From positions 32,871 to 96,870 of the forward strand of contig CAZLSW010000001.1 in NCBI GenBank assembly GCA_964562375.1: a stretch of DNA of 64,000 nucleotides. The letters run 5' to 3'. Of this stretch, positions 6,521 through 62,324 are shown piece after piece (position 1 is the first letter of the stretch; each line of letters starts with the position of its first letter). The DNA is from an uncultured Muribaculaceae bacterium (GTDB lineage: Bacteria; Bacteroidota; Bacteroidia; Bacteroidales; Muribaculaceae). The notes under the pieces were generated by a model. It had not been told where the DNA came from. It made no database searches and saw only the letters and a list, made by a program, of their open reading frames with translations. The translations under genes were made by a program, and so were the position numbers.

Positions 6521-6590
6521 CGTGCACTCGTTTATTTGTTTATTCGTGCATTCGACATAATCCATAAACTAGAAACTAGAAACTAGAAAC
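6521..6590 (+). repeat. Modular leader array upstream of leuS: 8-mers (CGTGCACT-type) then (AACTAGA)x3
   Basis: CGTGCACT CGTTTATT TGTTTATT CGTGCATT, then AACTAGA x3, ending 12 nt before the leuS ATG. Confidence 0.85.
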
Positions 6591-6601
6591 TTTCAACCCG
6601 A

Positions 6602-13043: not shown

Positions 13044-13183
13044 TGGTTAATGGTTAATGGTTAGTGGTTAGTGATTAGTGATTAAGTATGATAGTAAATA
13101 AGCTGAAAAGCCATTAAAAAATCAACTAACAACTAACAACTAACAACTAACAACTAACAACTAACAACTAACAACTAACAACT
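13041..13183. repeat. Two opposed heptamer arrays between convergent genes: (GGTTAAT/GGTTAGT/GATTAGT) and (AACTAAC)x8
   Basis: 13041-13086 carries GTTAATG/GTTAGTG-type units. 13123-13183 carries about 8.5 copies of AACTAAC. The arrays are partly complementary and the right one runs into the last codons of the WbqC-like ORF. Confidence 0.85.
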
Positions 13184-16652: not shown

Positions 16653-18032
16653 ATGGAAACCACTGAAAAAATTATCTCCCTTGAGGTCCTCGCCGCCTCC
16701 CGACGTGCCTGGAACCGCATGGCCAACATCCGCCAAAACCGCTCCCGTTTCAAGGATTTCACCTACGGCAAACAATGGGGCGACAAAGAGAAAACACCTG
16801 AGGGTATCACCCTCACCGAAGAGCAACTCACTATCAATCAAGGTGCTCGTCCCCAAACCAACAACCTCATCCGTCAGATGGTGAAGACCATCATTGGTCG
16901 ATATCGCCAGCAACAGGCCGAGCGACAAATCCAGCACGGCCTCAAGGGCCTTTATCGCCGAAATATGCTCCCCGAACTCGATTCCCGGCTCCTCGAGGAA
17001 TTCCTAATCTCGGGTTGCGCTATCCAACGTATAAGCACCGAAACCACCATGAAAGGCCGCGGCCCATGGGTGGAGAACGTAAATCCCAACACATTCTTTG
17101 TCAACGACTTCCGCGATCCTCGCGGCTGGGACGTGGAGCTTCTTGGCATGGTGCATGATTGGAGCCTACGTGAGGTGATCATGCGCTTCGGCCACGGCGA
17201 CCCCGACCGTATAGAGCGCCTTCGCGAGGTATACAGCATTGTCCGAGGAGAGTCGTTCCTCAATGGCGATTTTCTTGGCGGTCCTACCGACCGCTGCCGG
17301 GTAATCGAGGCTTGGACCCTTGAGAGTCATGGACTTATCGAAGTCCACGACCCCGTGAGAGGCGTCTATGAGGTGTTGGACGCCGCCTGCATCGATGATG
17401 TCAACGCTCAAAACGGCCAGCGACGCCGTAAAGGTATCCCCGAGCGTCGCGTGCGCCAGTGCATATCCACATTCTGGCGTTGCCGTTACATGTCGCCCAC
17501 AGGCGAGTTATTGCACAGTTATATCGCTGAGCAGCACCCATTTGTATTCAAGTTTTACCCCCTCACCGACGGCGAGGTACATTCCTTTGTCGAGGATATT
17601 ATCCATCAGCAAAAGCACGTCAACCGCATCATCACAATGGTCGATCAAGTGATGCGCACTTCAGCCAAGGGCGCTCTCCTTTATCCCGTGCAGTGCCTCA
17701 CAAAGGGTACCTCAATCAAGGACATTTCTAAGGTGTGGAGCGCACCCGACGCCGTCATTCCCTACAACGCTTCCAGCCTCGGCGAACCCCACCAGATCAC
17801 GACCTCCTCCGGCGACATTGGAGCCTACAACCTTTTGAATCTCGAGCTCCAACTCTTGCAGGATGTCTCTGGCGTTGGCGACGCCCTGTTGGGCAAAAAT
17901 ATCTCGGCCGCCAAGGGCGAAGGGGTATACGAGGCTCAGGTGAGAAACGCCACAATCGCCATCTCCGACCTTCTCGAAACATTCCAATCTCTCGTTGAAC
18001 AACGTGATCAAAAGTTGTTAAAATTGCAATAA
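16653..18032 (+). CDS. Phage portal-like protein
   Basis: The N-terminal RQNRSRFKDFTYGKQWGD...TEEQL...QGARPQTNNLI resembles the Y-x-G-x-QW opening of portal proteins. The C-terminal LELQLLQDVSGVGDALLGKN...AQVRNATIA resembles the portal stem and helix region. Recognition is by eye only. Confidence 0.5.
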   Translation: METTEKIISLEVLAASRRAWNRMANIRQNRSRFKDFTYGKQWGDKEKTPEGITLTEEQLTINQGARPQTNNLIRQMVKTIIGRYRQQQAERQIQHGLKGLYRRNMLPELDSRLLEEFLISGCAIQRISTETTMKGRGPWVENVNPNTFFVNDFRDPRGWDVELLGMVHDWSLREVIMRFGHGDPDRIERLREVYSIVRGESFLNGDFLGGPTDRCRVIEAWTLESHGLIEVHDPVRGVYEVLDAACIDDVNAQNGQRRRKGIPERRVRQCISTFWRCRYMSPTGELLHSYIAEQHPFVFKFYPLTDGEVHSFVEDIIHQQKHVNRIITMVDQVMRTSAKGALLYPVQCLTKGTSIKDISKVWSAPDAVIPYNASSLGEPHQITTSSGDIGAYNLLNLELQLLQDVSGVGDALLGKNISAAKGEGVYEAQVRNATIAISDLLETFQSLVEQRDQKLLKLQ

Positions 18033-19208: not shown

Positions 19209-19465
19209 CGTAATCAAATGATTACAATGGTTATTCACAAGGCGAGGGCAGTTATTATGCCAGCCAGAAGCGCCAGGCGCGCCAAGCGGGATATCCACCG
19301 AATGTGGCGGTCGCGGCGAGCGAAGCTGTCTTTGATATCGGTTACAATCGGTAGCATAGTTGTGTAAGCAAAGAAAGGGTTAATAAACTAAGTGAACATC
19401 ATTTTCCTTTATAACAATCAACTATGCCTTTTTGGCTCGCCAAAACCGCAAAAAAAGCGTTAAAG

Positions 19466-19566
19466 CAGGAGGTCCCGCCGTGTCGGCGGGACAGTTAGAC
19501 AAGAAGTCCCGCCGTGTCGGTGGGACAATAATTCTCTCGGGCCGACACGGCCCGACATCCTACTTG
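19466..19566. repeat. REP-like palindrome cluster (3 copies) downstream of asnS
   Basis: GTCCCGCCGTGTCGGCGGGAC, GTCCCGCCGTGTCGGTGGGAC and the inverted GGGCCGACACGGCCCGAC, with AGGA(A/G)GT / ACAG flanks. Confidence 0.9.
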
Positions 19567-19568
19567 CT

Positions 19569-20974: not shown

Positions 20975-21062
20975 TGCACTCGTGCACTCATGCATTCGTT
21001 TACTCGTTTACTCGAAAGCTCGAAGGCTCGAATGCACGAATGAACGAATACACGAATGCACG
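20975..21062. repeat. Array of eleven 8-nt units (TGCACTCG / TTTACTCG / AATGCACG types) in the asnS leader
   Basis: Strict 8-nt periodicity. The left and right halves contain mutually complementary words (TGCATTCG vs CGAATGCA), giving an imperfect long palindrome. Confidence 0.85.
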
Positions 21063-21088
21063 AGGGATCGAAATTACGATTTTTGAGA

Positions 21089-22627
21089 TTATTCGAAGGA
21101 GCCCATTTTGAGGAAGTTAACCTCTTCCTGGGTGAGGTAACGCCAGCGGCCGCGGGGGAGGTTTTTCTTGGTCAGGCCCGCGAAGTACACGCGGTCGAGC
21201 TTGGTCACGTGGTAACCCAGCGACTCGAAGATACGGCGAACGACGCGATTGCGGCCCGAGTGGATCTCGATGCCCGCCTGGTTGCGGTCGGTCTCGGTGG
21301 CGTAGGAGATGGCGTCGGCGTGGATGGGGCCGTCGTCAAGCTCGATGCCGTCGGCGATACGCTGCATATCCTCCTCGGCGATGTCCTTGTCACACCATAC
21401 GTGGTAGATTTTCTTCTTCACGTATTTGGGGTGGGTGAGCTTGGAGGCCAGGTCACCGTCGTTGGTCAACAGCAGCACGCCGGTGGTGTTGCGGTCCAAG
21501 CGACCCACGGGGTAGATACGCTCGTTGCATGCGCCCTTCACCAGGTCCATAACCGTGGTGCGGCCGTTGGGGTCGTCGCTCGTGGTGACGCAATCCTTCG
21601 GTTTGTTAAGCAGGATGTAGCATTTGCTCTCCAGAGCCACCACCTTCTCATCGTATTCAACGACATCCGAGTGGGAGATCTTGGTACCCAGCTCGGTAAC
21701 AACGTTGCCGTTGACCTTCACCAAGCCCTGCTGGATGAACTCGTCGGCCTCGCGGCGCGAGCAGATACCGGCGTTGGCCATGAACTTGTTCAGACGAATC
21801 TGCTCATTGGGATCGGGTATCGGCATTTCGTACTCGATACGCTTGGGGCGCGGAGTGAAGCTCTTGCCGCGTGAGGGCATGAACCCTTGCTGACCCTGCT
21901 GGCGACGGTTGTTGTACCCGCCTTGCTGACGGTTGTTGTAGCCGCCCTGGCGGTTATTGTAACCACCCTGGCGGTTGTTGTTGTAGCCACCCTGACGGTT
22001 GTTGTTGTAGCCACCCTGGCGGTTGTTGTTGTAGCCGCCCTGACGGTTGTATCCGCCCTGTTGGCGATTCTGGCCTTGGTGACCGGGGTTGTTGTAACCG
22101 CCTTGGCGATTGTTGTATCCGCCCTGGCGATTGTTGTTGTAACCGCCTTGGCGGTTGTTATTGTATCCACCCTGCTGGCGAGGCTGGTAGCCGCCGGCGT
22201 TGGGACGCGGCTGGTAGCCTGTGTTGGGGCGGGGCTGGTAGCCTTGGGTTGGGGTAGCGCCGGCTGCGCCCTCGGCGGTCTCGCCTTCCTTGGCCTCGCC
22301 CTGGGGGGCGGCGGAGGGGGTACCGTAGGTGTTGGGACGCGGCTGATAGCCACCACCTTGGTAGTTATTGTTATAGCGATTGTAGCCCCCCTGCTGGCGA
22401 TTTTGGTAGCCTCCAGCGTTGTTGTAGCGGTTTTGGTAACCACCCTGTTGGCGTGGCTGATAGGGGCGCGGCTGGTAGGGGCGGTCGCCCGTGGGGGCGG
22501 CGTCGCTGTTGTGATCGTTCATTGAGCTGTAGCTCGACTTTTCATAGCGTGAGCCTTCGTGATCGTCGGCCACCGCACGGCTCTCGCCGATTCTGGGTCG
22601 TTTCCCTTTTTTGTCGTTACTTTCCAT
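21089..22627 (-). CDS. Pseudouridine synthase (RluB/RsuA family) with a roughly 250-aa N-terminal Gly/Tyr/Asn/Gln/Arg repeat region
   Basis: C-terminal half has an S4 domain (IRLNKFMANAGICSRREADEFI) and the catalytic VGRLDRNTTGVLLLTNDG. The N-terminal half is NRQGGYNN-type repeats. Confidence 0.88.
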   Translation of the reverse strand: MESNDKKGKRPRIGESRAVADDHEGSRYEKSSYSSMNDHNSDAAPTGDRPYQPRPYQPRQQGGYQNRYNNAGGYQNRQQGGYNRYNNNYQGGGYQPRPNTYGTPSAAPQGEAKEGETAEGAAGATPTQGYQPRPNTGYQPRPNAGGYQPRQQGGYNNNRQGGYNNNRQGGYNNRQGGYNNPGHQGQNRQQGGYNRQGGYNNNRQGGYNNNRQGGYNNNRQGGYNNRQGGYNNRQQGGYNNRRQQGQQGFMPSRGKSFTPRPKRIEYEMPIPDPNEQIRLNKFMANAGICSRREADEFIQQGLVKVNGNVVTELGTKISHSDVVEYDEKVVALESKCYILLNKPKDCVTTSDDPNGRTTVMDLVKGACNERIYPVGRLDRNTTGVLLLTNDGDLASKLTHPKYVKKKIYHVWCDKDIAEEDMQRIADGIELDDGPIHADAISYATETDRNQAGIEIHSGRNRVVRRIFESLGYHVTKLDRVYFAGLTKKNLPRGRWRYLTQEEVNFLKMGSFE

Positions 22628-25391: not shown

Positions 25392-25504
25392 CTTCTTCAC
25401 TTAATCCTTTACTCCTTTCCTCCTTTAAAGATTTAACGCCTTAAAGATTTAAAACTAGAAACTAGAAACTAGAAACTAGAAACTAGAAACTAGAAACTAG
25501 AAAC
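25392..25504. repeat. CCTTT-word block followed by (AACTAGA)x7
   Basis: TAATCCTTTACTCCTTTCCTCCTTTAAAG, then AACTAGA x7 (25453-25504), ending 2 nt before the stop of the ABC ATPase gene. Confidence 0.9.
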
Positions 25505-25506
25505 TC

Positions 25507-26787: not shown

Positions 26788-26925
26788 TAGTTTTTAGTTT
26801 TTAGTTTTTAGTTTTTAGTTTCTAGTTTCTAGTTTTAAAGCATTAAAGCATTAAAGCTTTAAAGGAGTAAAGGAGGAAAGGATCCATTTATAAGCCCCCG
26901 CTTCGGGGGTTTGGGGGCCGCTTTA
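26788..26925. repeat. Composite repeat: (TAGTTTT)x4-(TAGTTTC)x2, (AAAGCATT)x2, (AAAGGAGN)x3, then GC hairpin AAGCCCCCG-CTTC-GGGGG
   Basis: Read directly from the sequence. The AAAGGAGG...GGAT...TTATAAGCCCCCG.TTCGGGGG..TGGGGGCCG part recurs at 55030-55105. Confidence 0.9.
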
Positions 26926-31675: not shown

Positions 31676-33542
31676 TTACGATGTGATAGTGGTAGGCGCC
31701 GGGCATGCCGGTTGCGAGGCGGCAATGGCGGCTTCGCGGCTCGGCGCGTCAACGCTGTTGATCACTATCGACATGAACAAAATCGCCCAGATGAGCTGCA
31801 ACCCAGCCGTCGGGGGCATCGCCAAAGGCCAGATCGTGCGGGAAATCGACGCCATGGGTGGCCATATGGGAATCATCACCGACCGATCGGCGATACAGTT
31901 CCGTATGCTCAACCGCTCGAAAGGTCCGGCAATGTGGAGTCCGCGTTCGCAGTGCGACCGTATGAAATTCTCACTCCTTTGGCGACACACGCTCGAAAAC
32001 GCCCCTAACTTGTACATGTGGCAGGACAACGTCACCTCGCTGCTCATCGAGGATGGCAAGCTCGCGGGAGTAAAAACCGCCCTCGGTGTTGAGTTTCGCT
32101 CAAAGGCAGTTGTGCTTACCGCCGGCACTTTCCTCAACGGATTGATGCACGTGGGGCGCGCCCAGGTGAAAGGTGGCCGCGTGGCCGAGCCAGCTTCGCA
32201 CGGCATCACCGAACAGTTGCGCGACCTGGGTTTCGCCACCGACCGAATGAAGACCGGCACGCCTGTGCGCATCGACGCACGCTCGGTCGACTGGTCGCTC
32301 ACTACCGAGCAACTCGGCGACAACGATTTCCATAAATTCTCCTACCTCCCCGAGGTGCGACGTGAGTTGCGACAACTCCCATGCGCTATCGTATACACCA
32401 ACGAGCGCACCCACGATGTGCTGCGCGCAGGATTGCCCGACTCTCCTCTTTACAACGGCCAAATCCAGAGCATCGGTCCGCGCTACTGTCCCAGTATCGA
32501 AACAAAGATCGTCACCTTCGCCGACAAAACCGAGCATCAGCTCTTCCTCGAGCCGGAAGGCGAGGATACCCAAGAATACTACCTCAACGGCTTCTCATCG
32601 TCGCTTCCCCTGAAAGTGCAGATTGAAGCCTTGCAGACAATCCCCGCGCTGCGCGACGTACACATTTACCGTCCGGGTTACGCCATCGAATACGACTTCT
32701 TCGACCCGACCCAACTCTACCACACACTCGAAACCAAACTCCTCCCGGGACTCTTTTTCGCCGGTCAGGTCAACGGTACCACGGGATACGAAGAAGCCGC
32801 GGGCCAAGGCCTGGTGGCAGGTGCCAACGCCGCTTTGAAGGTGCAGGGTAGGGGGGAGTTCACCCTCTCCCGCGACGAAAGCTACATTGGAGTGCTTATC
32901 GACGACCTCGTCACCAAGGGGGTCGACGAGCCTTACCGAATGTTCACCTCACGCGCTGAGTACCGCATACTCCTACGCCAGGACGACGCCGCCATGCGCC
33001 TCACCCCAAAAGCCTACGCCGTCGGTCTGGTTGACGAGCGTCGCTACCAACTTACCGAACGCAAGCGCGCCCTGCGCGACTCCCTAATAGAATTTGCTCG
33101 CCGCTACTCAATCAAGGCGGCGCTGATCAACCCCGCGCTTGAGCAACTTGGCACCGCGCCCCTCACCCAAGGCACGCGCCTCTACGATCTGCTCCTGCGT
33201 CCTCAGTTATCCATCCCCGCGCTTGTCCCCCTTATCGACGCCCTCCGCCGCCGCGTGGAGGAGATTCCCAATGACCTGCGCGACGAAGTGGTGGAGTGCG
33301 CCGAAATCCTCATCAAGTACCAAGGTTACATCGACCGCGAGGCTCAAATCGCCCAAAAGCTGCGACGCCTCGAGGAGGTGAAACTCGGCGACCGTTTCGA
33401 CTACTCCACCATCCACCAGCTCTCCACCGAGGCCCGACAAAAGCTCGCGAAAATCCAGCCCGCGACCGTCGGACAAGCCTCCCGAATCCCCGGCATTTCC
33501 CCCAGCGACATAAACATCCTTCTGTTGCTGTTGGGACGCTAA
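31665..33542 (+). CDS. mnmG: tRNA uridine 5-carboxymethylaminomethyl modification enzyme MnmG (GidA)
   Basis: MKFNYDVIVVGAGHAGCEAA FAD fold; 625 aa. The ATG at 31665 overlaps the ybeY end; the ORF is open from 31572. Confidence 0.96.
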   Translation: MKFNYDVIVVGAGHAGCEAAMAASRLGASTLLITIDMNKIAQMSCNPAVGGIAKGQIVREIDAMGGHMGIITDRSAIQFRMLNRSKGPAMWSPRSQCDRMKFSLLWRHTLENAPNLYMWQDNVTSLLIEDGKLAGVKTALGVEFRSKAVVLTAGTFLNGLMHVGRAQVKGGRVAEPASHGITEQLRDLGFATDRMKTGTPVRIDARSVDWSLTTEQLGDNDFHKFSYLPEVRRELRQLPCAIVYTNERTHDVLRAGLPDSPLYNGQIQSIGPRYCPSIETKIVTFADKTEHQLFLEPEGEDTQEYYLNGFSSSLPLKVQIEALQTIPALRDVHIYRPGYAIEYDFFDPTQLYHTLETKLLPGLFFAGQVNGTTGYEEAAGQGLVAGANAALKVQGRGEFTLSRDESYIGVLIDDLVTKGVDEPYRMFTSRAEYRILLRQDDAAMRLTPKAYAVGLVDERRYQLTERKRALRDSLIEFARRYSIKAALINPALEQLGTAPLTQGTRLYDLLLRPQLSIPALVPLIDALRRRVEEIPNDLRDEVVECAEILIKYQGYIDREAQIAQKLRRLEEVKLGDRFDYSTIHQLSTEARQKLAKIQPATVGQASRIPGISPSDINILLLLLGR

Positions 33543-33650: not shown

Positions 33651-33706
33651 TTCATAACTCCAAGAAAATCAATTAACAAATATTTACCCCCCCTCTCCTC
33701 GACTGT

Positions 33707-33827
33707 CGTTTACTCGTTCATTCGTTTACTCGTTCATTCGTTAATTCGTATACTCGTGTACTCGTGTACTCGTTCACTCGAAAACCAAAAACCAAAAACC
33801 AAAAACTAGAAACTAGAAACTAGAAAC
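33707..33827 (+). repeat. Modular leader array upstream of apt: nine 8-mers (CGTTTACT/CGTTCATT/CGTGTACT), (AAAACCA)x3, (AACTAGA)x3
   Basis: Read directly. Same 8-mer-then-7-mer order as upstream of leuS and the acyl-CoA synthetase gene. Ends 16 nt before the apt ATG. Confidence 0.9.
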
Positions 33828-33842
33828 TTTAAAACTAAAATA

Positions 33843-34482: not shown

Positions 34483-34586
34483 CTGTCGGGCCGACACGGC
34501 CCGACCTCCTTCCTAAGCTAAGTAGGAGGTCCCGCCGTGTCGGCGGGACTGTTTTTCTGTCGGGCCGACACGGCCCGACTTCCTGT
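34483..34586. repeat. REP-like palindrome cluster (3 copies, alternating orientation)
   Basis: CTGTCGGGCCGACACGGCCCGACCTCCT, AGGAGGTCCCGCCGTGTCGGCGGGACTG and CTGTCGGGCCGACACGGCCCGACTTCCT. Confidence 0.92.
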
Positions 34587-34597
34587 CTAACCCTAGG

Positions 34598-40362: not shown

Positions 40363-40452
40363 AAATGGTTGCGTTAAGGGCCACACGAGCCGTAAATTAC
40401 CGCAAAATAACTAAAATTTTGGAGAAGAAGCAAGAAATACCCCCCGGAAAAT

Positions 40453-40640
40453 TAAGTAGGACGTCAAGTAGGAAGTCGGGCCGTGTCGGCCCGACAGATC
40501 AGAAAGGAAGTCGGGCCGTGCCGCCCCGACAGATTAGAAAGGAAGTCGGGCCGTGTCGGCCCGACAAATTAGAAAGGAGGTCGGGCCGACACGGCCCGAC
40601 AACCAATTCCGTCCCGCCGACACGGCGGGACATCCTATTT
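40453..40640. repeat. REP-like palindrome cluster (5 copies, about 35-nt period)
   Basis: Three forward copies of AGGAAGTCGGGCCGTG(T/C)CGGCCCGACA spaced by ATCAGAA/ATTAGAA, then two inverted copies (…GCCGACACGGC…). Confidence 0.95.
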
Positions 40641-40727
40641 AGCGGGGGCCAATCTCCTATTTACCATTGTCATTTTTCCACAAAAATCATTTTATTTCAA
40701 GAAAAATGTAAAATTATTTTGGTAATT

Positions 40728-42247: not shown

Positions 42248-43330
42248 TTAACAACTCTTTGGCTCACCCCTATACTGGTAGTGGTTGCGTAGTGATTCGA
42301 AGGCTTGCGGCCGGGCTTTTAGCTCGGCCGTATCCTTTCGGGGGTCGTAGCTGGCCAAAAGCGCCTCCACGCTCACAGTATCGGCCACAGGTGGTAGTTT
42401 AGGCAGGAAGTCGGGCCGTGTCGGCCCGACAGAAAGAAAGTCCCGCCGTGTCGGCCCGACAGAAAGGAAGTCCCGCCGTGTCGGCCCGACAGAAAGGAAG
42501 TGCTCCCTCACGGCGGCGACGGCTATCAGGGTAGCCCGTTGCTTGCCTTCCAGGGAGTAACCGGCTATATGCGGCGTGGCGATCTCGGCAAGCGACAATA
42601 ACCCGGGACTGATGTTAGGCTCTCCCTCCCAGCAGTCAATCGCGGCGCCAGTAATTTGGCCGCTCCGCAACGCCTCAACCAGTGCAGGCGTATCGACCAC
42701 TGGGCCGCGAGCCGCATTGAAAATCAGCGGTTTTTGCTCGCACTTGCCGAAGAAATCGGCATCGGCCATATGGAATGTTCGATCCTCGCCTTCGCGGGTG
42801 AGAGGCGTGTGGAAAGTTATCACGTTGGCTTCGCGAGCGATCTCGTCGAGCGTCACGAAACCCTCAGCGCCCTCCTCGCGAGCTCTTGGCGGGTCGCAGA
42901 GTAGCACCTTGATTCCCAATCCCTTGGCCCATCTTTGGACAATCTTGCCCACATGGCCCACGCCAACTATTCCCAAAACTGTGCCCTCGAGTGGGCGCAT
43001 GGCCATCAGCGACGTGAGCACCCACTGGGCCACGCCCGGAGCGTTGCAGCCAGGGGCGTTCCTCACCTCAATTCCACGCGACGCGCAATAGGGGAGGTCG
43101 ATATGGTCGGTGCCGATAGTCGCGGTCGCAATCATCTGGCAACGAGAGTGTTCCAGCAAGTTGGCGTTGCATTTCGTGCGTGTGCGGGTAACCAGCGCAT
43201 CGACGTCGCGCATCGCCTCCGGCGTGATTTCCTCGGCGGGGAGATACCTCACCTGGCCAAGGTCCTCAAGCATTCCTTGGATGAACGGGATGTTGGCCTC
43301 GACCACGATGTTTAAGCCGTGAGATTCCAT
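42248..43330 (-). CDS. pdxB: D-isomer-specific 2-hydroxyacid dehydrogenase, erythronate-4-phosphate dehydrogenase (PdxB)-like, carrying three in-frame repeat insertions
   Basis: GIVGVGHVGK NAD fold and ATPHIAGYS. Start at MESHGLNIVV (ATG 43330). FLSVGPTRRD x3 is encoded by REP-like copies. Confidence 0.75.
   Translation of the reverse strand: MESHGLNIVVEANIPFIQGMLEDLGQVRYLPAEEITPEAMRDVDALVTRTRTKCNANLLEHSRCQMIATATIGTDHIDLPYCASRGIEVRNAPGCNAPGVAQWVLTSLMAMRPLEGTVLGIVGVGHVGKIVQRWAKGLGIKVLLCDPPRAREEGAEGFVTLDEIAREANVITFHTPLTREGEDRTFHMADADFFGKCEQKPLIFNAARGPVVDTPALVEALRSGQITGAAIDCWEGEPNISPGLLSLAEIATPHIAGYSLEGKQRATLIAVAAVREHFLSVGPTRRDFLSVGPTRRDFLSVGPTRPDFLPKLPPVADTVSVEALLASYDPRKDTAELKARPQAFESLRNHYQYRGEPKSC
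42401..42500. repeat. Three tandem REP-like copies (30-nt period) inside the pdxB-like CDS
   Basis: Cores at 42410-42430, 42440-42460 and 42470-42490. The 30-nt period equals 10 codons and reads through as (F)LSVGPTR(R/P)D. Confidence 0.95.
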
Positions 43331-46240: not shown

Positions 46241-46405
46241 CAAGTAGGAAGTCGGGCCGTGCCGGCCCGACAGATAGAAAGGACGTCGGGCCGTGTCGGC
46301 CCGACAGATCAGAAAGGAAGTCGGGCCGTGCCGGCCCGACAGAAAACGTGTCCCGCCGGCACGGCGGGACATCCTACTTATAAAAGGGGACATCCTACTT
46401 ATAAA
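46241..46405. repeat. REP-like palindrome cluster (4 copies) plus a duplicated flank (GGACATCCTACTTATAAAAG x2)
   Basis: Three forward GTCGGGCCGTG(C/T)CGGCCCGAC copies and one GTCCCGCCGGCACGGCGGGAC. Confidence 0.95.
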
Positions 46406-48150: not shown

Positions 48151-48174
48151 TCCTCACCTCGTTTCCTCGATAGT

Positions 48175-48252
48175 CGTGCACTCGTGTATTCGTGCATTCG
48201 TGCATTCGAAAAATCACCCCTCTTTCTGAAAACTGAAAACTGAAAACTGAAA
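48175..48252 (+). repeat. Modular leader array: 8-mers (CGTGCACT CGTGTATT CGTGCATT CGTGCATT) then (CTGAAAA)x4
   Basis: Read directly. Ends 11 nt before the ATG at 48263. Confidence 0.9.
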
Positions 48253-49927: not shown

Positions 49928-49934
49928 CAGTACG

Positions 49935-50035
49935 ATCAAGCCACCGTGCCCCGCGGTCAGAAAGGAAGCCGGGCCGTGTCGGCCCGGCAGTATAAACAAG
50001 CCACCGTGCCCCGCGGTTTGCCGCGGTGGTCTTCC
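49935..50035. repeat. Nested composite: CCGCGG-type element interrupted by a REP-like copy, then a complete CCGCGG-type element
   Basis: CAAGCCACCGTGCCCCGCGG | TCAGAAAGGAAGCCGGGCCGTGTCGGCCCGGCAGTATAAA | CAAGCCACCGTGCCCCGCGGTTTGCCGCGGTGGTC. Confidence 0.85.
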
Positions 50036-50083
50036 CCCCAGTTCGATTTCCCTCGATTTCCCCCGATTTCAGTCGAAAAAATT

Positions 50084-51199
50084 ATGAAATATTCCCGCCT
50101 AGCCGTCAAAATCGGCTCCAACGTCCTCTCCCGCCCCGACGGCACCCTCGACATCACCCGAATGAGCGCCCTGGTCGACCAAGTGGCCGAGCTGCGTCGC
50201 ATGGGTCTCGACATCGTCATGATCTCATCGGGAGCAGTCGCCGCCGGCCGCTCCGAGCTCAGAAAGGATGTCGGGCCGTGTCGGCCCGACAGAGACACGC
50301 CAAAACCCCTCGACTCCGTCTCCCAGCGACAGCTCTTCTCAGCCGTCGGCCAAGCCAAATTAATCAACCGCTACTACGAGCTCTTCCGCGACCACGGCCT
50401 ATCCTGCGGCCAGGTCCTCACCACCAAAGAAAACTTCTCCACCCGCCGCCATTACCTCAACCAAAAGCACTGCATGGAGGTAATGCTCGCCGCTGGCGTC
50501 ATTCCTATCGTCAACGAAAACGACACCGTGTCGCTCACCGAACTGATGTTCACCGACAACGACGAGCTCTCGGGCCTGATCGCCGCCATGATGGGCATGG
50601 ACGTTTTGGTGATCCTAAGCAATATAGATGGTGTATACGACGGCGATCCCGCCGACCCGGAGTCGCGTCTTATCACCGACGTGGCTCCGGTTGACGACCC
50701 CACGCGCTACGTGCAAGCGGCCAAATCCTCGCTCGGCCGCGGGGGGATGGGCACCAAGATGCGCATCGCCCGCAAGGTGGCCTCCGAGGGCCTCGATGTG
50801 ATTATCGCCAACGGCAAACGCCCCAACATCCTCATCGACCTTATCTCGCGTGACGACACCCCCTGCACCGTCTTCCACGCCGCTGCCGTCGAGCCCTCGA
50901 GCGTTAAGAAATGGATTGCCCACAGCGAGGGATTCGCCAAGGGTGAGGTGCATGTCAACCAAGGCGCTGCCGACGCGCTCCTCTCAGGCACCGGCGCCAG
51001 CCTTTTGGCTGTAGGAGTTACCCGCATTGTGGGCGATTGGGAAAAGGACGACGTCGTGAAAGTAATCGCCCCCGATGGCCGCCAGATCGCCCTCGGCCGA
51101 GTCAGCTACTCCTCGTCCACTACTGCCAAGGTAATGGGCCGCACAGGCCAGCGCCCAGTAATCCACAGCGATTACCTCTACCTCGAAGGCTGCCCTTAA
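50084..51199 (+). CDS. proB: Glutamate 5-kinase (with PUA domain), carrying one in-frame repeat insertion
   Basis: VKIGSNVL, SSGAVAAG, AVGQAKL and a C-terminal PUA domain. Start at MKYSRLAV (ATG 50084). Confidence 0.92.
   Translation: MKYSRLAVKIGSNVLSRPDGTLDITRMSALVDQVAELRRMGLDIVMISSGAVAAGRSELRKDVGPCRPDRDTPKPLDSVSQRQLFSAVGQAKLINRYYELFRDHGLSCGQVLTTKENFSTRRHYLNQKHCMEVMLAAGVIPIVNENDTVSLTELMFTDNDELSGLIAAMMGMDVLVILSNIDGVYDGDPADPESRLITDVAPVDDPTRYVQAAKSSLGRGGMGTKMRIARKVASEGLDVIIANGKRPNILIDLISRDDTPCTVFHAAAVEPSSVKKWIAHSEGFAKGEVHVNQGAADALLSGTGASLLAVGVTRIVGDWEKDDVVKVIAPDGRQIALGRVSYSSSTTAKVMGRTGQRPVIHSDYLYLEGCP
50261..50295. repeat. REP-like copy inside the proB CDS
   Basis: AGAAAGGATGTCGGGCCGTGTCGGCCCGACAGAG, read through as RKDVGPCRPDR between SSGAVAAGRSEL and the AVGQ region. 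Confidence 0.95.
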
Positions 51200-51227: not shown

Positions 51228-52412
51228 TTATAGCTTTAAGGCTTTAAGGCTGAGGCGATCCACCAGCGTCGCCAGCGCGCAATCCCCCGTGACGTTACAC
51301 GCCGTCCCGAAATTATCCATCGCGATATACAACGCGATCATCAACGCATTCATCTCCTCGGTAAAGCCAAGGATTGACGACAAGATGCCCAATGAAGCCA
51401 TAATCGCGCCGCCTGGGATACCCGGCGCGGCCACAATCGCTATACCCAGCATCGCGGCCAGTTGCAGGAACATCCCCGCGTCGTAGGGCACGCCCTGGTA
51501 AATCATCAACGCCAGCGCGCACGCCACGATTTTCAGTGCCGAGCCGCTCATGTGGATTGTCGCGCATAGGGGGATAACAAAACCCGCCACGCTCTCGTTG
51601 ACACCCGTCTTGATTGTCTGCTTCAGCGTCACTGGTATCGTGGCGGCTGAGCTCTGCGTGCCCAGCGCGGTCATATACGCCGGAAGCATCGTGCGCAGCA
51701 TCTTCAGCGGATTCCGCTTGGCGGCCGCTCCCGCGATGCTGTATTGCAGCAACAAGATGCCGATATGAAGCACGAAAATCACCGCGATCACCTTCACGAA
51801 CGTCTGCAGGATCGCTCCCACCTGCCCCTCCATGGTCATCGTAAGGAAGATTCCGAAGATGTACACCGGCAGCAACGGGATTATCACGCCGCGGATGGTC
51901 AAGTCGATGATGTCGCGAAATTGTCGGGCCGCTTTGCTCAGACCGTCAGCGTGGGTGTAAGCTATGCCGATGCCCACGGTGAACGACAGCACAAGCGCGG
52001 TCATCACCCCCATCGGCGCCGGTATCTCCACCGTGAACCACGGCTTAGAAAGGATGTCGGGCCGTGTCGGTCCGACAGTATAGGCCCCCTCAGGTGAAAT
52101 GATATCCGGGAAAATCGCCGCGCCGGTAAAATATGAAATCGCGCCCGCGAGGAACGTCGCCGAATAGGCAAGCACCACGGTTGTTAGCAGCATCTTGCCG
52201 GCACCGCGCCCGATGTCGCCGATTGCCGGCGTGACAAAGCCGATGATAATCAGCGGAATAAGGAACCCCAGGAACTGGCCGAAAATACCGTTGAATGTGG
52301 CGCACAGAGCCGCCAACCACCCCGGCGCCACCATTCCCGCGCCTATTCCCAGCGCGATAGCTATTATAATGCGGGGAAGCAACCCCATCTTGGTTAACGC
52401 TTTGAAACTCAT
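51228..52412 (-). CDS. Sodium:dicarboxylate/amino-acid symporter family transporter (SstT-like), carrying one in-frame repeat insertion
   Basis: Polytopic protein with PLCATIHMSGSAL and AAPGIPGGAIMA motifs. Start at MSFKALTK (ATG 52412); the longer ORF to 52493 only translates repeat DNA. Confidence 0.85.
   Translation of the reverse strand: MSFKALTKMGLLPRIIIAIALGIGAGMVAPGWLAALCATFNGIFGQFLGFLIPLIIIGFVTPAIGDIGRGAGKMLLTTVVLAYSATFLAGAISYFTGAAIFPDIISPEGAYTVGPTRPDILSKPWFTVEIPAPMGVMTALVLSFTVGIGIAYTHADGLSKAARQFRDIIDLTIRGVIIPLLPVYIFGIFLTMTMEGQVGAILQTFVKVIAVIFVLHIGILLLQYSIAGAAAKRNPLKMLRTMLPAYMTALGTQSSAATIPVTLKQTIKTGVNESVAGFVIPLCATIHMSGSALKIVACALALMIYQGVPYDAGMFLQLAAMLGIAIVAAPGIPGGAIMASLGILSSILGFTEEMNALMIALYIAMDNFGTACNVTGDCALATLVDRLSLKALKL
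52047..52080. repeat. REP-like copy inside the transporter CDS
   Basis: AGAAAGGATGTCGGGCCGTGTCGGTCCGACAGTA, read through on the minus strand as TVGPTRPDILS. Confidence 0.95.
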
Positions 52413-52450: not shown

Positions 52451-52562
52451 CTAAGTAAGTAGGAAGTCCCGCCGTGCCGGCGGGACAGCTCAAGTAGGAA
52501 GTCCCGCCGTGCCGGCGGGACAGTTTTCTCTGGCGGGCCGTGCCGGCCCGCCTTCCTTTCTA
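52451..52562. repeat. REP-like palindrome cluster (3 copies) upstream of the transporter
   Basis: Two AAGTAGGAAGTCCCGCCGTGCCGGCGGGACAG copies and one GGCGGGCCGTGCCGGCCCGCC variant. Confidence 0.92.
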
Positions 52563-52690
52563 AATGAGGGATACCCCTTGTAACAATCCTGTAACAAAAA
52601 ATCTCAAAATTTAATCATCAGTTATTCAATTATTTATCCTTAAAAATCCCTATCTCTTAAAATTTTTAACAAAAAATATTTGTAAAATTA

Positions 52691-52796: not shown

Positions 52797-53300
52797 ATGG
52801 GCTCCTCTAAATTCCAATCCAATCTCATGAAGCTGCAAAGCAATATGCTCAACTTCGCTTATATGCTTACCGCCAACCGCGACGACGCTTACGACCTCCT
52901 CCAGGACACCACCCTCAAAGCTCTCGACAACGAAGAGAAGTACATCGACAACACCAACTTCAAAGGCTGGGTGTTCACCATCATGCGCAACATCTTCATC
53001 AACAATTACCGCCGCGTGGCCCGCGCAGCCACTGTTGTCGACTCCACCGAAAACCTCTACCACCTGAATCTCTCCCAGGATTCAGGCTTGGAAACTCCCG
53101 AAGGCGCCTTTGGCGCCAAGGAGATCACTCAATACCTGAGCGAGTTTCCCGACGAATATCGCGTTCCTTTCTCGATGCACGTCGCCGGCTACAAGTACAA
53201 CGAGATCGCCGAGAAGATGAACCTCCCCCTTGGCACCGTCAAGAGCCGCATCTTCTTCGCCCGCCAGCGCCTCCAGAAGCGTTTCGCCGATTACCGCTAA
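52797..53300 (+). CDS. RNA polymerase sigma-70 factor, ECF subfamily
   Basis: Region 2 (DLLQDTTLKAL...GWVFTIMRNIFINNYRR) and region 4 (YNEIAEKMNLPLGTVKSRIFFARQRL). No adjacent anti-sigma gene. Confidence 0.9.
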   Translation: MGSSKFQSNLMKLQSNMLNFAYMLTANRDDAYDLLQDTTLKALDNEEKYIDNTNFKGWVFTIMRNIFINNYRRVARAATVVDSTENLYHLNLSQDSGLETPEGAFGAKEITQYLSEFPDEYRVPFSMHVAGYKYNEIAEKMNLPLGTVKSRIFFARQRLQKRFADYR

Positions 53301-53445
53301 GTAGGAGGTCCCGCCGTGCCGGCGCCCCAGCTTAAGTAGGAAGTCCCGCCGTGCCGGCGCCCCAGCTTAAGTAGGAAGCTGGGCCGTGTCGGCCCAGCAG
53401 TATCAACAAGCCACTGTGCCCCGCGGTTTGCCGCGGTGGTCTCCT
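53298..53445. repeat. REP-like cluster (3 copies) plus a CCGCGG-type element, starting on the sigma-factor stop codon
   Basis: TAAGTAGGAGGTCCCGCCGTGCCGGCGCCCCAGC x2, then AGGAAGCTGGGCCGTGTCGGCCCAGCAG and CAAGCCACTGTGCCCCGCGGTTTGCCGCGGTGGTC. Confidence 0.92.
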
Positions 53446-53553: not shown

Positions 53554-54975
53554 CTACTGCTCTTCCTCGGCGGCTGCCAGGGCTGCTTCCTCTTCCTTGG
53601 TGAGCCACTTCACGCGCACGTGGGTCTCAGGGTAGCGGAGAACCATGCAAGAGGCCTCGGTGATGACGATCGCGTCGGTGTTGCGCTGGCCCGAGGTGCG
53701 CAGGTCCAGTTTCTCCGTCTGGAAGGGAATGTGGCAGTACTTGGTCACATACTCAGGGTCGAGAATCAATCCGTCGCGCTCGTGGCCGCACTGGTCGAAC
53801 GTCTCGCAAGGCAACACGTAGAGGGAGCCGAATTTGCTCACGATCTCGTTGAAGTCGATGCCCCACTTGGTCACGCGTTCCTGGGAATTCACCAGGCGAT
53901 TGAACGTTAGGCAGTTGATCTCCTCCACAAGTTTCGACCCCGCAATCAAGATCTTGCGCGTCGATCCGTTGTTCTTGGTGAACGCCTTGTAGCACAGCGC
54001 CACCAGGTCCTTCTCTTTGAAGGTCGACGGCATATTGTGGTCGCGGCCGGCCTGGTTCCAGATTCCGCCGGTGAGGTAAATCTCCCCCTTGGTGGGGTCG
54101 TTGACCTTGGCCTTGGTGCCGAACAGGAAGTTCTTCTCCATGCCCAGGCGCATGTCGTAGATGGCTACCTCCTCCTGGTCGCTGAGGGTCCAGCCTACCT
54201 CTTTGTTGGCCAGTTTCATAAGCGTCGACTGCTCGATCTGGGCCTTGAAGATTTGGCAGTAGTTGTCGGCCTTGGTGGGTACCGCCTCGAAGGAGGTCGT
54301 CTGCACGTCAAGCTCGCCGGCAGCGCGGCCCATGCGGATGAGTTTGGTCCCCTTGTCCATTGCGGGAACCACGGCCACGCCTGAGGTGTCGAAGTTGTTT
54401 ACCGAGATCACGTTGACCGTCTTGGTTTGAGTGCGCGAAACCACATAGAGCACGAGGGGCTGTTGGCTCGAGGCCGTAATGGAGGGCACGAGAATCGTCT
54501 CCGAGGCCTCAAACATGTTCTCCTTGGCTACCGTCAGGGTGAGAGGAGAGTTGGTCGAGCTCCCTTCGGTGGACTTCGCTAGCTCGGTTTCAGTCTCCTT
54601 GGTGTCCACCGAGTAGTACTGCACAGTCATTGAGTCGGCGGCGCGGCTGCCGGTGCAGCGAGTAATCTGGTCAACCGGGGTGGCCATGGGACGGATCTTG
54701 GTGATGCGGTTGTCGATCTCGCTACGCAAGAGGCCCGGGGCTACCTCCTCGGTGACCGAGGTGGTGAGGGGGCCGTCGGTGACGTGGGTCCCTCCCGCGG
54801 TACCCGCTACAACAGCCGCCGAAGCGTAGATCATGTCTCCGTCGCCGCCCAAGGCGAGCCAAAGGGCCACTGTGGCAATCGCCACGAGAAGGGTTACTAC
54901 GCCGTTGTCGCTTTTCACCCACTGGATCATCTGGTCAATCATGCCAGAAAGATTCTTCACATTGAAATTTTTCAT
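53554..54975 (-). CDS. HK97-fold major-capsid-like protein (SU10/DUF5309-type resemblance)
   Basis: 473 aa. ...EIDNRITKIRPMATPVDQI... resembles the N-terminal isP.dTPf signature. Also LSDQEEVAIYDMRLGMEKNFLFG and a C-terminal NTDAIVITEASCMVLRYPE. Recognition is by eye only. Confidence 0.55.
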   Translation of the reverse strand: MKNFNVKNLSGMIDQMIQWVKSDNGVVTLLVAIATVALWLALGGDGDMIYASAAVVAGTAGGTHVTDGPLTTSVTEEVAPGLLRSEIDNRITKIRPMATPVDQITRCTGSRAADSMTVQYYSVDTKETETELAKSTEGSSTNSPLTLTVAKENMFEASETILVPSITASSQQPLVLYVVSRTQTKTVNVISVNNFDTSGVAVVPAMDKGTKLIRMGRAAGELDVQTTSFEAVPTKADNYCQIFKAQIEQSTLMKLANKEVGWTLSDQEEVAIYDMRLGMEKNFLFGTKAKVNDPTKGEIYLTGGIWNQAGRDHNMPSTFKEKDLVALCYKAFTKNNGSTRKILIAGSKLVEEINCLTFNRLVNSQERVTKWGIDFNEIVSKFGSLYVLPCETFDQCGHERDGLILDPEYVTKYCHIPFQTEKLDLRTSGQRNTDAIVITEASCMVLRYPETHVRVKWLTKEEEAALAAAEEEQ

Positions 54976-55112
54976 AAAAGTTGAATGTTGAAAGTTGAAT
55001 GTTGAAAGGTTTCTAGTTCCTAGTTTTTAGTTAATGGGGTAATTTTAAAGGAGGAAAGGATAAAAGGGGCTATTATAAGCCCCCGTTTCGGGGGGGTGGG
55101 GGCCGATTCGGC

Positions 55113-56428: not shown

Positions 56429-57307
56429 ATGGCATTGAAACGCAACGCATTAGGGCGAGGCCTTGACTCGCTAATACCAATGGACGACGTGCCCGCCGCC
56501 GGCACGACGGCTATAAACACCGTGCCACTAAGCCAAATCTCGCCCAATCCCGATCAACCTCGCCAGACATTCGCCCAGGATGCTCTGGACGACTTGACGC
56601 GCTCGATCACAACGTATGGCGTGCTTCAGCCCATTTCCCTGAGGCAAGTTGGCCCCTCAAGCTACCAGATAATCGCTGGTGAGCGTCGCTATCGTGCCGC
56701 TTTGGCCGCAGGTCTGCGCGAGATCCCCGCATATATACGCGACGCCAACGAGCAAGAGCTCACCGAGATGGCTCTAATCGAGAACATCCAGCGCGAGGAT
56801 CTCAACCCCATCGAAATCGCCCTTACCTACAACAAGCTCATCGACCAATATCACCTCACCCAGGAGCAGCTTTCGGAACGCATCGGCAAAAGTCGAGCTG
56901 TGATCGCCAACGCGTTGCGCATGCTTCGCCTGCACGCTGATGTGCAATTGGCCCTGAGCGAGAGGCGATTGACCGAGGGACATGCCCGCGCTATTCTAAG
57001 GTTGGACGACCACCAGATGCAGAATAAACTGTTCCATCGTATCCTGGCCGAGGACCTGAGCGTGCGCCGCGCCGAAGAGCTTGCCAAAGAGATGCTCGAG
57101 GGGGTGGAAATAACCCCCAAGAAACCCACGCTAAAACGCGAAAAAAACCGCCTTTTCGACGAATTGAAGCAAAACCTCTCCGCCCGCTTTTCCGCTCCCG
57201 TCCAGCTCCATTGCGACGCCAACGGAAAAGGCCGCATTACCTTCTCCTTCCGCGACCAAGAGCAGCTCACCCGCCTGATCGCCCTCTTCGACCAAATCCA
57301 AGGCTAA
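56429..57307 (+). CDS. parB: Chromosome partitioning protein ParB (Spo0J)
   Basis: GERRYRAA box and an HTH region; 292 aa. Starts 2 nt after parA. Confidence 0.95.
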   Translation: MALKRNALGRGLDSLIPMDDVPAAGTTAINTVPLSQISPNPDQPRQTFAQDALDDLTRSITTYGVLQPISLRQVGPSSYQIIAGERRYRAALAAGLREIPAYIRDANEQELTEMALIENIQREDLNPIEIALTYNKLIDQYHLTQEQLSERIGKSRAVIANALRMLRLHADVQLALSERRLTEGHARAILRLDDHQMQNKLFHRILAEDLSVRRAEELAKEMLEGVEITPKKPTLKREKNRLFDELKQNLSARFSAPVQLHCDANGKGRITFSFRDQEQLTRLIALFDQIQG

Positions 57308-57358
57308 GTAGGAAGTCCCGCCGTTAAGTAGGAAGTCCCGCCGTGCCGGCGGGACAGC
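57305..57358. repeat. REP-like copies (one truncated, one full) starting on the parB stop codon
   Basis: TAAGTAGGAAGTCCCGCCGT | TAAGTAGGAAGTCCCGCCGTGCCGGCGGGACAG. Confidence 0.92.
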
Positions 57359-57370
57359 TCCTCCCCTCGG

Positions 57371-57500
57371 GCTCGACTTCCCTCGATTTAAGTCGATTTA
57401 AATCGATTTAAGTCGAAAGAAATCGAGAGAAATCGAGAGAAATCGAAAGAAATCGAGAGAAGTCGAAAGAAATCGAAAAAAATCGATATAAATCCGCGTG
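57371..57500. repeat. Thirteen-unit 10-nt tandem array (AAATCGAGAG / AAATCGAAAG / AAGTCGATTT types)
   Basis: Strict 10-nt period with a phased A-tract and TCGA in each unit, between convergent parB and the beta-helix lipoprotein gene. Confidence 0.92.
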
Positions 57501-61453: not shown

Positions 61454-61495
61454 GCTAAACGCTAAACGCTAAATGCTAAATGCTAAACGCTAAAC
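61454..61495. repeat. Heptanucleotide tandem repeat (GCTAAAY)x6
   Basis: Six consecutive units ending 6 nt before the stop of the ferritin-like gene. Confidence 0.92.
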
Positions 61496-61500
61496 GCTTC

Positions 61501-62069: not shown

Positions 62070-62196
62070 AAGTTTATAGTTTCTTGTTTATAGTTTCTAG
62101 TTTCTAGTTTCTAGTTTCGCTAAATTGAATATTCACCGCTTTTCACCCCTTGAGCTATTAACTAGAAACTAGAAACTAGAAACTAGAAACTATAAA
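62070..62196. repeat. Inverted heptamer arrays (TAGTTTC)n ... (AACTAGA)n in a divergent promoter region
   Basis: The left array 62091-62118 (TAGTTTC x4) is the reverse complement of the right array 62160-62190. A 41-nt spacer separates them. Confidence 0.9.
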
Positions 62197-62324
62197 CCCC
62201 AAAACTTGGCCGCATCGCGAAAAACGCGTATCTTTGGGCCGTGAAAGGGCTAAGGCCGCATGATTGTGTTGAATATAACTCAATTCTACCCTTAAATATA
62301 CCAACATTAAACACGATAACCCGC

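Follow-up and report, generated by a model that had tools for sequence, protein, structure and literature searches.

Repetitive extragenic palindromic (REP) sequences of the GTAG and CGTC types are hairpins of 20-40 nt that lie mostly outside genes (Di Nocera, De Gregorio and Rocco 2013, PMC3733652). A minority is found inside genes as singles, dimers, or groups, where they encode 7-30 recurring residues rich in Gly, Pro, and Ala, such as VAGVADPGPGSxSPA or GTGVPPV. Such intragenic copies are known in Opitutus terrae, Rickettsia conorii, and other bacteria, and they were proposed to be neutral and to reside in linkers or loops. Among the O. terrae families (GTAG-17, GTAG-18, and GTAG-19), GTAG-17 is almost always read as VAGVADP...PGSxSPA, and GTAG-19 is read in several registers (GTGVPPV, HGRDARAT, TGGTPVP, and WHGRPAR). 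In the same survey, GTAG REPs were recorded in Proteobacteria, Cyanobacteria, Chloroflexi, and the PVC group, and Bacteroidetes contained CGTC REPs only (PMC3733652). Here, we describe a REP-type repeat from the Bacteroidales. It was found in a 64,000-nt stretch (hereafter, the window) of contig CAZLSW010000001.1 from an uncultured Muribaculaceae bacterium (assembly GCA_964562375.1, positions 32,871 to 96,870), and the copy of main interest, at window positions 52047-52080, lies in frame within a gene for a cation symporter of the SDF/DAACS family.

The window repeat resembles the GTAG/CGTC REPs in the size of its hairpin, its mostly extragenic location, its termini that abut or supply stop codons, and the minority of copies inside genes that encode a recurring peptide. 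However, its sequence is unrelated to the published families, its GTAG is located 3 nt from the stem and is present in only about 11 of the 30 copies, and its arrays are direct tandems with a period of 35 nt, whereas the GTAG/CGTC REPs mainly form inverted dimers. Constant-length loop replacement and remnants in relatives were not analysed in the published survey (PMC3733652). The Rickettsia palindromic elements (RPE-1 to RPE-10; Ogata et al. 2000/2002, summarised in PMC10969869 and PMC3733652) are palindromic selfish repeats of ~100-150 bp that lie in frame in unrelated housekeeping genes. They add 30-50 aa with a conserved peptide and were judged compatible with the fold and function of the host protein. 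The intragenic copies in the window likewise lie in frame at tolerant positions: the 3-4 loop of the SDF transporter, a loop of the proB product that is absent from structure 2J5T, and the inter-domain linker of the pdxB product. The RPEs differ in their unrelated sequence and their alphaproteobacterial obligate intracellular hosts, whereas the window unit is 34-35 nt long, belongs to the Bacteroidales, and contributes 11-13 aa per unit.

The REP, bacterial interspersed mosaic element (BIME), and REPIN-RAYT (REP doublet forming hairpin and REP-associated tyrosine transposase) systems of Enterobacteria and Pseudomonas (PMC2817692, PMC3116915, PMC3337134) share with the window repeat high-copy imperfect palindromes, clustering, compensatory changes in the stems of a single genome, and lineage-specific bursts. 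Their 5' GTAG-type tag has a counterpart in only part of the window copies. However, the classical systems are essentially extragenic, while the window clusters are mostly head-to-tail and no RAYT was found in the window. REP-type systems exist in the phylum Bacteroidetes, with TnpA-REP enzymes (Y1 HUH) of subclasses 2.4 and 2.6 (Quentin et al. 2018, PMC6006769). By analogy, these enzymes would be a plausible mobilising class for the window repeat, although their REPs have 'atypical secondary structures' or are 'long/double-foot' REPs instead of 9+3+9 hairpins. Intragenic miniature inverted-repeat transposable elements (ERIC, Correia, Nezha, and others; reviewed in PMC10969869) are also small non-autonomous repeats that can create in-frame fusions. 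They are 70-300 bp long with terminal inverted repeats and target-site duplications, whereas the window unit is 34 nt long and has none of these features. No target-site duplication was found between the filled sites of the window and the empty sites of two relatives, L001 (GCA_965328225) and L005 (GCA_020859755), for which up to 18 kb of DNA was fetched.

The in-frame residence of a REP-type repeat is a real but known kind of event, for which intragenic REPs and RPEs are established precedents. New here are the repeat family and its host lineage, the replacement of a loop at constant length, the contrast between array periods of 30 and 35 nt, and a datable remnant in a relative. We consider it probable that the feature in the SDF gene is one copy of a lineage-specific REP-type repeat that resides in a loop as a tolerated passenger.

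Results

A repeat copy in the 3-4 loop of an SDF transporter

The coordinates of the host genes and repeat copies are listed in Table 1. The initial annotation described an in-frame REP-like element at 52047-52080 together with its minus-strand peptide, and both were confirmed: the plus strand reads AGAAAGGATGTCGGGCCGTGTCGGTCCGACAGTA, this is a copy of the repeat family within the 394-codon minus-strand open reading frame (ORF) at 51228-52412, and the translation is ...ISPEGA[YTVGPTRPDILSK]PWFTVEIP, with the ...ISPEGAY and KPWFTVEIP flanks as described. One arm of the hairpin, CGGTCCGAC, differs from the consensus CGGCCCGAC, as had been noted, and the stem is weakened. However, the change is C-to-T on the plus strand at 52071, or G-to-A in the mRNA sense, and not G-to-T. 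It converts GGG into GGA, a synonymous Gly codon, creates an A·C mismatch, and destabilises the 21-nt hairpin, whose folding energy is -10.1 kcal/mol compared with -17.3 kcal/mol for the consensus. Within the window, the adjacent copy in proB, 1.8 kb away, resembles the SDF copy most closely, with 96% identity over 26 nt of head-plus-arm (direct-repeat family D6).

The host product matches PF00375 with an E value of 8.9e-87 and 292 bits over profile positions 1-386 of 387. The name SstT-like given in the initial annotation is appropriate at the superfamily level (SDF), but the product is not an SstT equivalog because it scored only 78.4 bits against NCBIfam NF010151, whose cutoff is 308. Its closest database relatives are entries named 'dicarboxylate/amino acid:cation symporter' from uncultured Bacteroidales (90-92% identity), and the next tier consists of Muribaculaceae proteins at ~66%. 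L001 and L005 are syntenic with the window across the fetched stretch. They are 82-85% identical to the window at the nucleotide level, and their SDF proteins are 91% identical to that of the window. The ratio of nonsynonymous to synonymous substitution rates (dN/dS) of the SDF gene is 0.05-0.08, with a synonymous divergence (dS) of 0.65-0.87, and dN/dS is 0.05-0.10 across SDF, proB, and pdxB. These values indicate strong purifying selection on the SDF gene family, but even the closest genomes for comparison are distant from that of the window. All invariant residues of the family alignment are kept in the window protein, and the REP-bearing transporter is most likely still functional.

The element was thought to occupy an inter-helix loop, and the AlphaFold topology and the orthologue alignment agree with this location. 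In the AlphaFold model (predicted template modelling score, 0.80), residues 105-135 are non-helical and are flanked by helices at residues 69-104 and 136-153. The predicted local distance difference test score is lowest, below 50, at residues 114-118, which correspond to GPTRP of the element. A PDB alignment to EAAT1 places the residues up to 107 at the end of transmembrane helix 3 (TM3). Judging from the topology of GltPh, the element-bearing segment is presumably the extracytoplasmic 3-4 loop.

The corresponding segment of the relatives reads ...ISPEGA-LATASEAATSVR-PWF in L001 and ...ISPEGA-MAAQAQSTTSVA-PWF in L005, compared with ...ISPEGA-YTVGPTRPDILSK-PWF in the window. In the DNA, a REP block of 39 nt is found in the window where L001 and L005 have 36 nt of unrelated loop-coding sequence, one codon fewer. 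The loop between the invariant residues P102 and P124 is 18-21 aa long in 65 homologues (20 aa in 36 of them and 19 aa in 24), and it has 21 aa in the window protein. Because the relatives have an unrelated loop of equal length and the loop length is conserved, the SDF copy is a replacement of the native loop and not a net insertion. The initial annotation, which described the element as inserted, is not supported on this point. The P102-P124 columns are the least conserved of the region among the 65 homologues. The length of the loop is constrained while its sequence is free, and the element now provides this sequence. No REP remnant was found in the SDF loop of L001 or L005; the only 13/19 match in L005 is conserved coding sequence outside the loop.

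Table 1. Positions of the repeat copies and their host genes in the window.
Feature	Position	Strand	Remarks
REP-type repeat copy in the SDF gene	52047..52080	+ (antisense to host gene)	head AGAAAGGATG, hairpin, tail CAGTA; member of direct-repeat families D2, D3, and D6
13 element-contributed codons	52044..52082	-	YTVGPTRPDILSK, residues 111-123 (Y111-K123) of the 394-aa product; replace 12 variable loop residues of the orthologues
21-nt hairpin core	52056..52076	.	GTCGGGCCG-TGT-CGGTCCGAC; one stem mismatch at 52071
SDF/DAACS-family cation symporter gene	51228..52412	-	394 aa, intact; Pfam PF00375, full length
REP copy in proB	50261..50296	+ (sense)	perfect stem; encodes RKDVGPCRPDRD; net +11 codons
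proB (glutamate 5-kinase)	50084..51199	+	TIGR01027, 309 bits (cutoff 186); Pfam AA_kinase and PUA
Three tandem REP units in pdxB	42398..42496	- (elements antisense to gene)	in frame, 33 aa, LSVGPTRRDFLSVGPTRRDFLSVGPTRPDFLPK; replace an inter-domain linker of 22-25 aa
pdxB-like gene (4-phosphoerythronate dehydrogenase)	42248..43330	-	NF001309, 380 bits (below cutoff, 434); PDB 3OET, E = 2.8e-67
Intergenic REP cluster	19463..19567	+	two direct copies and one inverted copy
Intergenic REP cluster	34483..34590	.	three copies, alternating orientation
Intergenic REP array	40466..40642	+	35-nt period; four plus-head copies (the fourth with inverted loop), then one inverted copy
Intergenic REP array	46242..46381	+	35-nt period; three direct copies and one inverted copy
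Solo intergenic REP	49959..49992	+	compensated stem GCCGGG...CCCGGC; in the 156-nt repeat-filled acs-proB spacer, which the relatives lack
Intergenic REP cluster directly upstream of the SDF gene	52457..52563	+	two direct copies with CCC-type stem and one inverted copy; relatives empty here
Intergenic array of three REPs	53299..53402	+	starts on the ECF sigma factor stop codon
Intergenic REP	57326..57359	+	immediately follows the parB-like stop codon

The repeat family in the window

All repeat counts given here refer to the 64-kb window. The repeat unit is ~34 nt long and consists of a purine-rich head (AAGTAGGAAG or AGAAAGGA(A/T)G), a GC hairpin of 9+3+9 nt, and a short tail (CAG(A/T)T). The 21-nt hairpin core of the family, GTCGGGCCG-TGT-CGGCCCGAC, has 27 matches with at most three mismatches, compared with 0.00 in 100 dinucleotide shuffles. 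In total, 30 copies at 13 sites were identified by a structure-based scan together with the repeat families. The folding energy of the consensus hairpin is -17.3 kcal/mol (z = -4.5). Several stem variants are fully compensated (GTCGGG/CCCGAC, GTCCCG/CGGGAC, GCCGGG/CCCGGC, GCTGGG/CCCAGC, and GGCGGG/CCCGCC); therefore, pairing is a conserved property of the repeat. The head AAGTAGGAAG, in which GTAG is 3 nt away from the stem, is found in ~11 of the 30 copies. The remaining copies, which include every intragenic copy, have the head AGAAAGGAAG or variants of it.

The family has the traits of REPs: it is short, palindromic, high-copy, mostly extragenic, and clustered, part of it has a GTAG head, and it often starts on a stop codon. 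Although 86% of the window is coding DNA, 25 of the 30 copies are extragenic. With a coding fraction of 0.856, the numbers of intragenic copies (5 of 30) and sites (3 of 13) have probabilities of 7e-17 and 7e-7, respectively. The repeat is strongly depleted in coding DNA, as would be expected if most landings inside genes were removed by purifying selection. Stem mismatches were not significantly commoner in intragenic than in intergenic copies (Fisher P = 0.30).

The clusters are made up of 2-4 head-to-tail units of 35 nt with one inverted unit at the end (40466-40642, 46242-46381, 52457-52563, and 19463-19567), and a single cluster, at 34483-34590, has alternating orientation. In some copies (40580-40600, 33550, and 52532), the hairpin loop is inverted relative to the head, so that an ACA or GCA loop is combined with a head in plus orientation. 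Therefore, the loop is an unreliable marker of orientation; probably, hairpins flip or inverted copies recombine. The TAA stop codons of the ECF (extracytoplasmic function) sigma gene (53298-53300), the parB-like gene (57305-57307), and mnmG (33540-33542) continue without a gap into a REP head (TAAGTAGG or TAAATAGG).

The repeat matched no Rfam family; in the whole window, only one tRNA was above the gathering threshold, and weak chance matches to Rfam fall on one repeat array. Among 185,579 species genomes, the exact core gave five single-copy matches, all to organisms of high GC content, and a scan of JGI metagenome contigs for the core with a TGY loop also gave five single-copy matches; both sets are without the window genome or its close kin. 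When the ORF of an intergenic array (40365-40727) was searched with HMMER against 1.84 billion representative proteins, no relatives were found, and the two matches obtained were unrelated low-complexity sequences. Because the exact core occurs elsewhere only in single copy and the translated array has no relatives, the family is narrowly lineage-specific. The fetched syntenic DNA of the relatives contains one diverged copy and a remnant in proB, whereas ~20 copies are found in the window over the same genes. This contrast and the repeat-expanded spacers of the window point to a burst of the repeat in the window lineage.

One such spacer lies between acs and proB. These genes overlap by 4 nt in the relatives (L001 9466-9469), while in the window they are separated by 156 nt (49928-50083) that contain a REP, a composite repeat, and a 10-nt tandem repeat, TCGATTTCCC. 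The spacer probably uncouples the translation of acs and proB. The composite repeat is 70 nt long and occurs at 49963-50032 and 53373-53442 with 94% identity. It consists of a REP with a compensated stem and a second-hairpin segment, CAGTATxAACAAGCCACxGTGCCCCGCGGTTTGCCGCGGTGGTCT.

Copies in proB and pdxB

The two other intragenic sites differ from that of the SDF gene. The segment of the proB product from R56 to D77 has 9 aa in 39 of 56 homologues, 12 aa in L005, 14 aa in L001, and 20 aa in the window, and the insert falls in an alignment gap relative to the E. coli glutamate 5-kinase structure 2J5T. The comparison shows a clean insertion of 11 codons, with no native codons lost. In L001, the sequence AGGCAGGAGGTGGGGTCGT is located at the orthologous position of proB (L001 9274-9292, minus strand) and matches the REP head and left arm at 14-16 of 19 positions. 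Only two matches of at least 14/19 to the head and left arm were found in 36.6 kb of L001 (both strands), namely this proB site and a bona fide intergenic REP-like hairpin. The half-REP at the orthologous site shows that a REP was present in proB before the split from L001 (dS ~0.74) and that its right half, of 18 nt, has since been lost in frame in L001. In the window, the copy has not diverged from the family consensus. The consensus sequence of a copy at a site older than the split implies either that copies have been homogenised or that a REP was inserted at this site again.

Long ProB homologues (432-507 aa) were considered as possible REP arrays, but they proved to contain internal duplications of ProB segments and were rejected. 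Database entries of 390-507 aa (P0123-P0126, P0186, and P0220 in our set) are internal tandem duplications in ENA assemblies and are probably assembly artefacts.

The three units in pdxB encode LSVGPTRRDF, LSVGPTRRDF, and LSVGPTRPDFLPK, and two of them have hybrid arms with two stem mismatches each. According to an alignment with 3OET, the linker that they occupy joins the dehydrogenase core to the C-terminal domain. In the relatives, this linker consists of 22-25 aa of unrelated sequence, and the net change in the window is +8 to +11 aa. The pdxB array (42405-42501), which is the sole intragenic array, has a period of 30 nt according to TRF, whereas all four intergenic arrays (40470-40601, 46246-46343, 52457-52523, and 53298-53393) have a period of 35 nt. 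The difference corresponds to the loss of 5 nt of spacer (AGATCAGAAAGG to AGAAAGG). A period of 30 nt is the trace that selection for the reading frame would leave.

The initial annotation counted three independent in-frame insertions within ~10 kb. Three in-frame sites (SDF, proB, and pdxB) are indeed present within 9.7 kb, but only that in proB is a clean insertion.

Reading register and orientation

The 9+3+9 palindrome equals seven codons. When it is read with its end in register, both strands give GTC GGG CCG nnn CGG CCC GAC, which encodes VGP-x-RPD, and the central codon is TGT (Cys) or ACA (Thr), depending on the orientation. The element is read in sense in proB (TGT loop, Cys) and in antisense in SDF and pdxB (ACA loop, Thr); therefore, both orientations relative to the gene are tolerated. 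The three proteins share the VGP(C/T)RPD core because the palindrome is symmetric and is read in its own register.

Stop codons were counted in six registers of the 30 copies, using 41-nt windows that include a few flanking bases. Registers r3 (CRADTARLPF*) and f3 are mostly closed, with stops in 22 and 18 copies, respectively. The two core registers, f1 (VGPCRPD) and r1 (VGPTRPD), are each interrupted in 11 copies. The stops in f1 come mainly from the TAG of the AAGTAGG head, and copies with AGAAAGG heads are open, while those in r1 lie in flanking or spacer bases outside the head and hairpin. Register f2 (SGRVGPT) is mostly open (stops in 7 copies), and r2 (SGRHGPT) is almost always open (2 copies). 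If four open frames are equally likely, the probability that three sites all use the core register is ~1/8. The frame preference seen at the three sites is suggestive at most. One tolerated frame and orientation rule had been proposed from the shared peptide. It does not hold for orientation, the shared core is a product of palindrome symmetry, and three events are too few for a rule on the frame.

Discussion

Origin of the intragenic copy in the SDF gene

We propose that the repeat multiplied in this genome and that nearly all copies were retained outside genes, as solos or as arrays with a 35-nt period that end in an inverted copy. By analogy with known REPs, we assume that the repeat was mobilised by a RAYT-type HUH transposase. 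A copy inside a gene would survive only if the net change in length was a multiple of three, the register was free of stops, and the site was not constrained in sequence. The copy in the SDF gene encodes 13 Gly, Pro, and charged residues in the loop between TM3 and TM4, where they fill the space of the native 12, and its peptide would be a passenger and not a module. As for the route of entry, we lean towards an insertion whose extra length was later offset by in-frame deletions, with selection acting on loop length. The proB remnant shows that in-frame erosion occurs in this clade, and the long branch (dS ~0.7) leaves time for it.

Several observations weigh against this proposal. The repeat counts cover only the window, which matters where the argument depends on the distribution in the whole genome. 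No RAYT/Y1-type transposase (no Y1_Tnp match) was found among the ~50 ORFs of the window. All three intragenic sites have an AGAAAGG or AGGCAGG head without the GTAG tag, which fits copying from array-internal units equally well. The exact replacement of the loop by an element with intact ends is somewhat awkward for random insertion and deletion, and the junction microhomologies are short (3-6 nt). Finally, the evidence for transporter function, namely ORF integrity and dN/dS over long branches (dS 0.65-0.87), is blind to a recent inactivation.

The intact head and tail, the block that spans exactly the variable segment, and the net gain of a single codon may instead reflect an overwriting of the loop in one step by copy-templated repair (ectopic gene conversion, template switching, or homology-facilitated illegitimate recombination) from a nearby REP. 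Constant length would then stem from the mechanism itself and not from selection afterwards. The adjacent proB copy could have been the template, as it is the most similar one (96% over 26 nt), and its consensus sequence at a site older than the split (dS ~0.74) implies conversion between copies. Microhomologies are present at the head junction of SDF (TTA) and at a junction of pdxB ((C)TTCC). However, matches of 3-6 nt are within chance expectation and are not decisive. Moreover, the clean insertion in proB indicates that the family does not always overwrite, the gain of 8 to 11 aa in pdxB indicates that length is not constant, and no intermediate or polymorphic alleles are at hand. We regard overwriting in one step as less likely, but as a serious alternative.

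A more general form of this idea is that REPs of this lineage, besides being inserted, can overwrite unconstrained loops and linkers of essential genes at near-constant length by copy-templated repair, are kept at consensus by ongoing conversion, and are admitted in the VGP-x-RPD register only. We consider this unlikely. If it were true, repeats would drive the replacement of protein loops by a route of its own that goes beyond simple decoration.

The same peptide core in three unrelated proteins could also be taken as a sign of a selected function, either of the VGPxRPD peptide or of the mRNA hairpin, such as a site for proteases or interactions in exposed loops, a pause in translation, or an element of mRNA stability. 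The change that weakens the SDF stem is synonymous, so that the peptide is kept while the hairpin is relaxed, and the proB copy is perfectly conserved at an old site. However, the common core follows automatically from palindrome symmetry and a single repeat family, and intragenic REPs of other bacteria are viewed as neutral decorations (PMC3733652). The hosts have little in common, since one is an extracytoplasmic loop of a transporter and the others are two cytoplasmic enzymes, and the frequency of stem mismatches inside genes is not significantly raised (P = 0.30). The closest relatives have no copy in SDF and a decayed copy in proB. As the relatives either lack the copy or let it decay, and symmetry explains the peptide, a selected role is very unlikely.

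The 3-4 loop of glutamate-transporter homologues has been reported to be important for transport. The SDF gene might accordingly be a young pseudogene that has not yet acquired stops, and dN/dS cannot reveal a very recent loss. However, the frame is open over all 394 codons, the loop length is in the range of the family, and the invariant residues are present. In addition, the elements are in frame in three genes, whereas about one third of unselected insertions would be expected to be in frame before stops are considered, and the 30-nt period of the pdxB array preserves the frame. Disruption is thus extremely improbable. An artefact is almost excluded: although the window comes from a metagenome-assembled genome (MAG), repeats can confuse assemblers, and several long ProB entries are assembly duplications, both flanks of the element are halves of one gene that is collinear with its relatives, while a chimera would join unrelated flanks; a 34-nt repeat is below the usual assembly k-mers, and chance resemblance is excluded by the shuffles.

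Other features of the window

Intergenic tandem repeats of 7 nt (AAACTAG, CAACTAA, and GCTAAAC), 8 nt (TCGTTTAC and TCGTGCAT), and 10 nt (TCGAAAGAAA) are present, and their units recur across loci. These microsatellite loci are located at 6566-6591, 13123-13183, 21013-21063, 25452-25505, 26788-26872, 33706-33840, 48174-48252, 57383-57494, 61454-61498, and 62071-62197, and similar short-period arrays are found in L001 and L005. A separate conserved hairpin family, AAGCCCCCG-nnn-CGGGGGnTT followed by GGGGGCCG, occurs at 26892-26912 and 55077-55097 and in L001 at 4236 and 4326; it is unrelated to the REP.

A pseudouridine synthase gene (S4 and PseudoU_synth_2; 21089-22627, minus strand) has an N-terminal extension of ~270 aa that derives from 24-nt tandem repeats (21906-22254). 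The extension is of low complexity and rich in Gly, Tyr, Asn, Gln, and Arg. Genes for a P22-portal-like protein (16653-18032) and an SU10-type major-capsid-like protein (53554-54975) lie amid housekeeping genes, and the capsid-like gene is found at the same place in relatives (L001 4604-6025). They could be a domesticated or remnant phage module.

Significance

This study adds a case from the Bacteroidales to the few genomes in which REP-type selfish palindromes are translated within housekeeping proteins. Three outcomes are found within 10 kb: a clean insertion of 11 codons in proB, the replacement of a linker by a frame-preserving 30-nt array in pdxB, and the replacement of a loop at constant length in SDF. 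The decayed remnant in L001 supplies a time axis for these events. For annotation, the case is a warning that REP-rich MAGs will contain both spurious ORF extensions and repeat-derived peptides in real proteins. If a complete genome confirms the register preference and concerted evolution of the copies, this family would be a natural system for the uptake of repeat peptides by proteins and for the policing of loop length.

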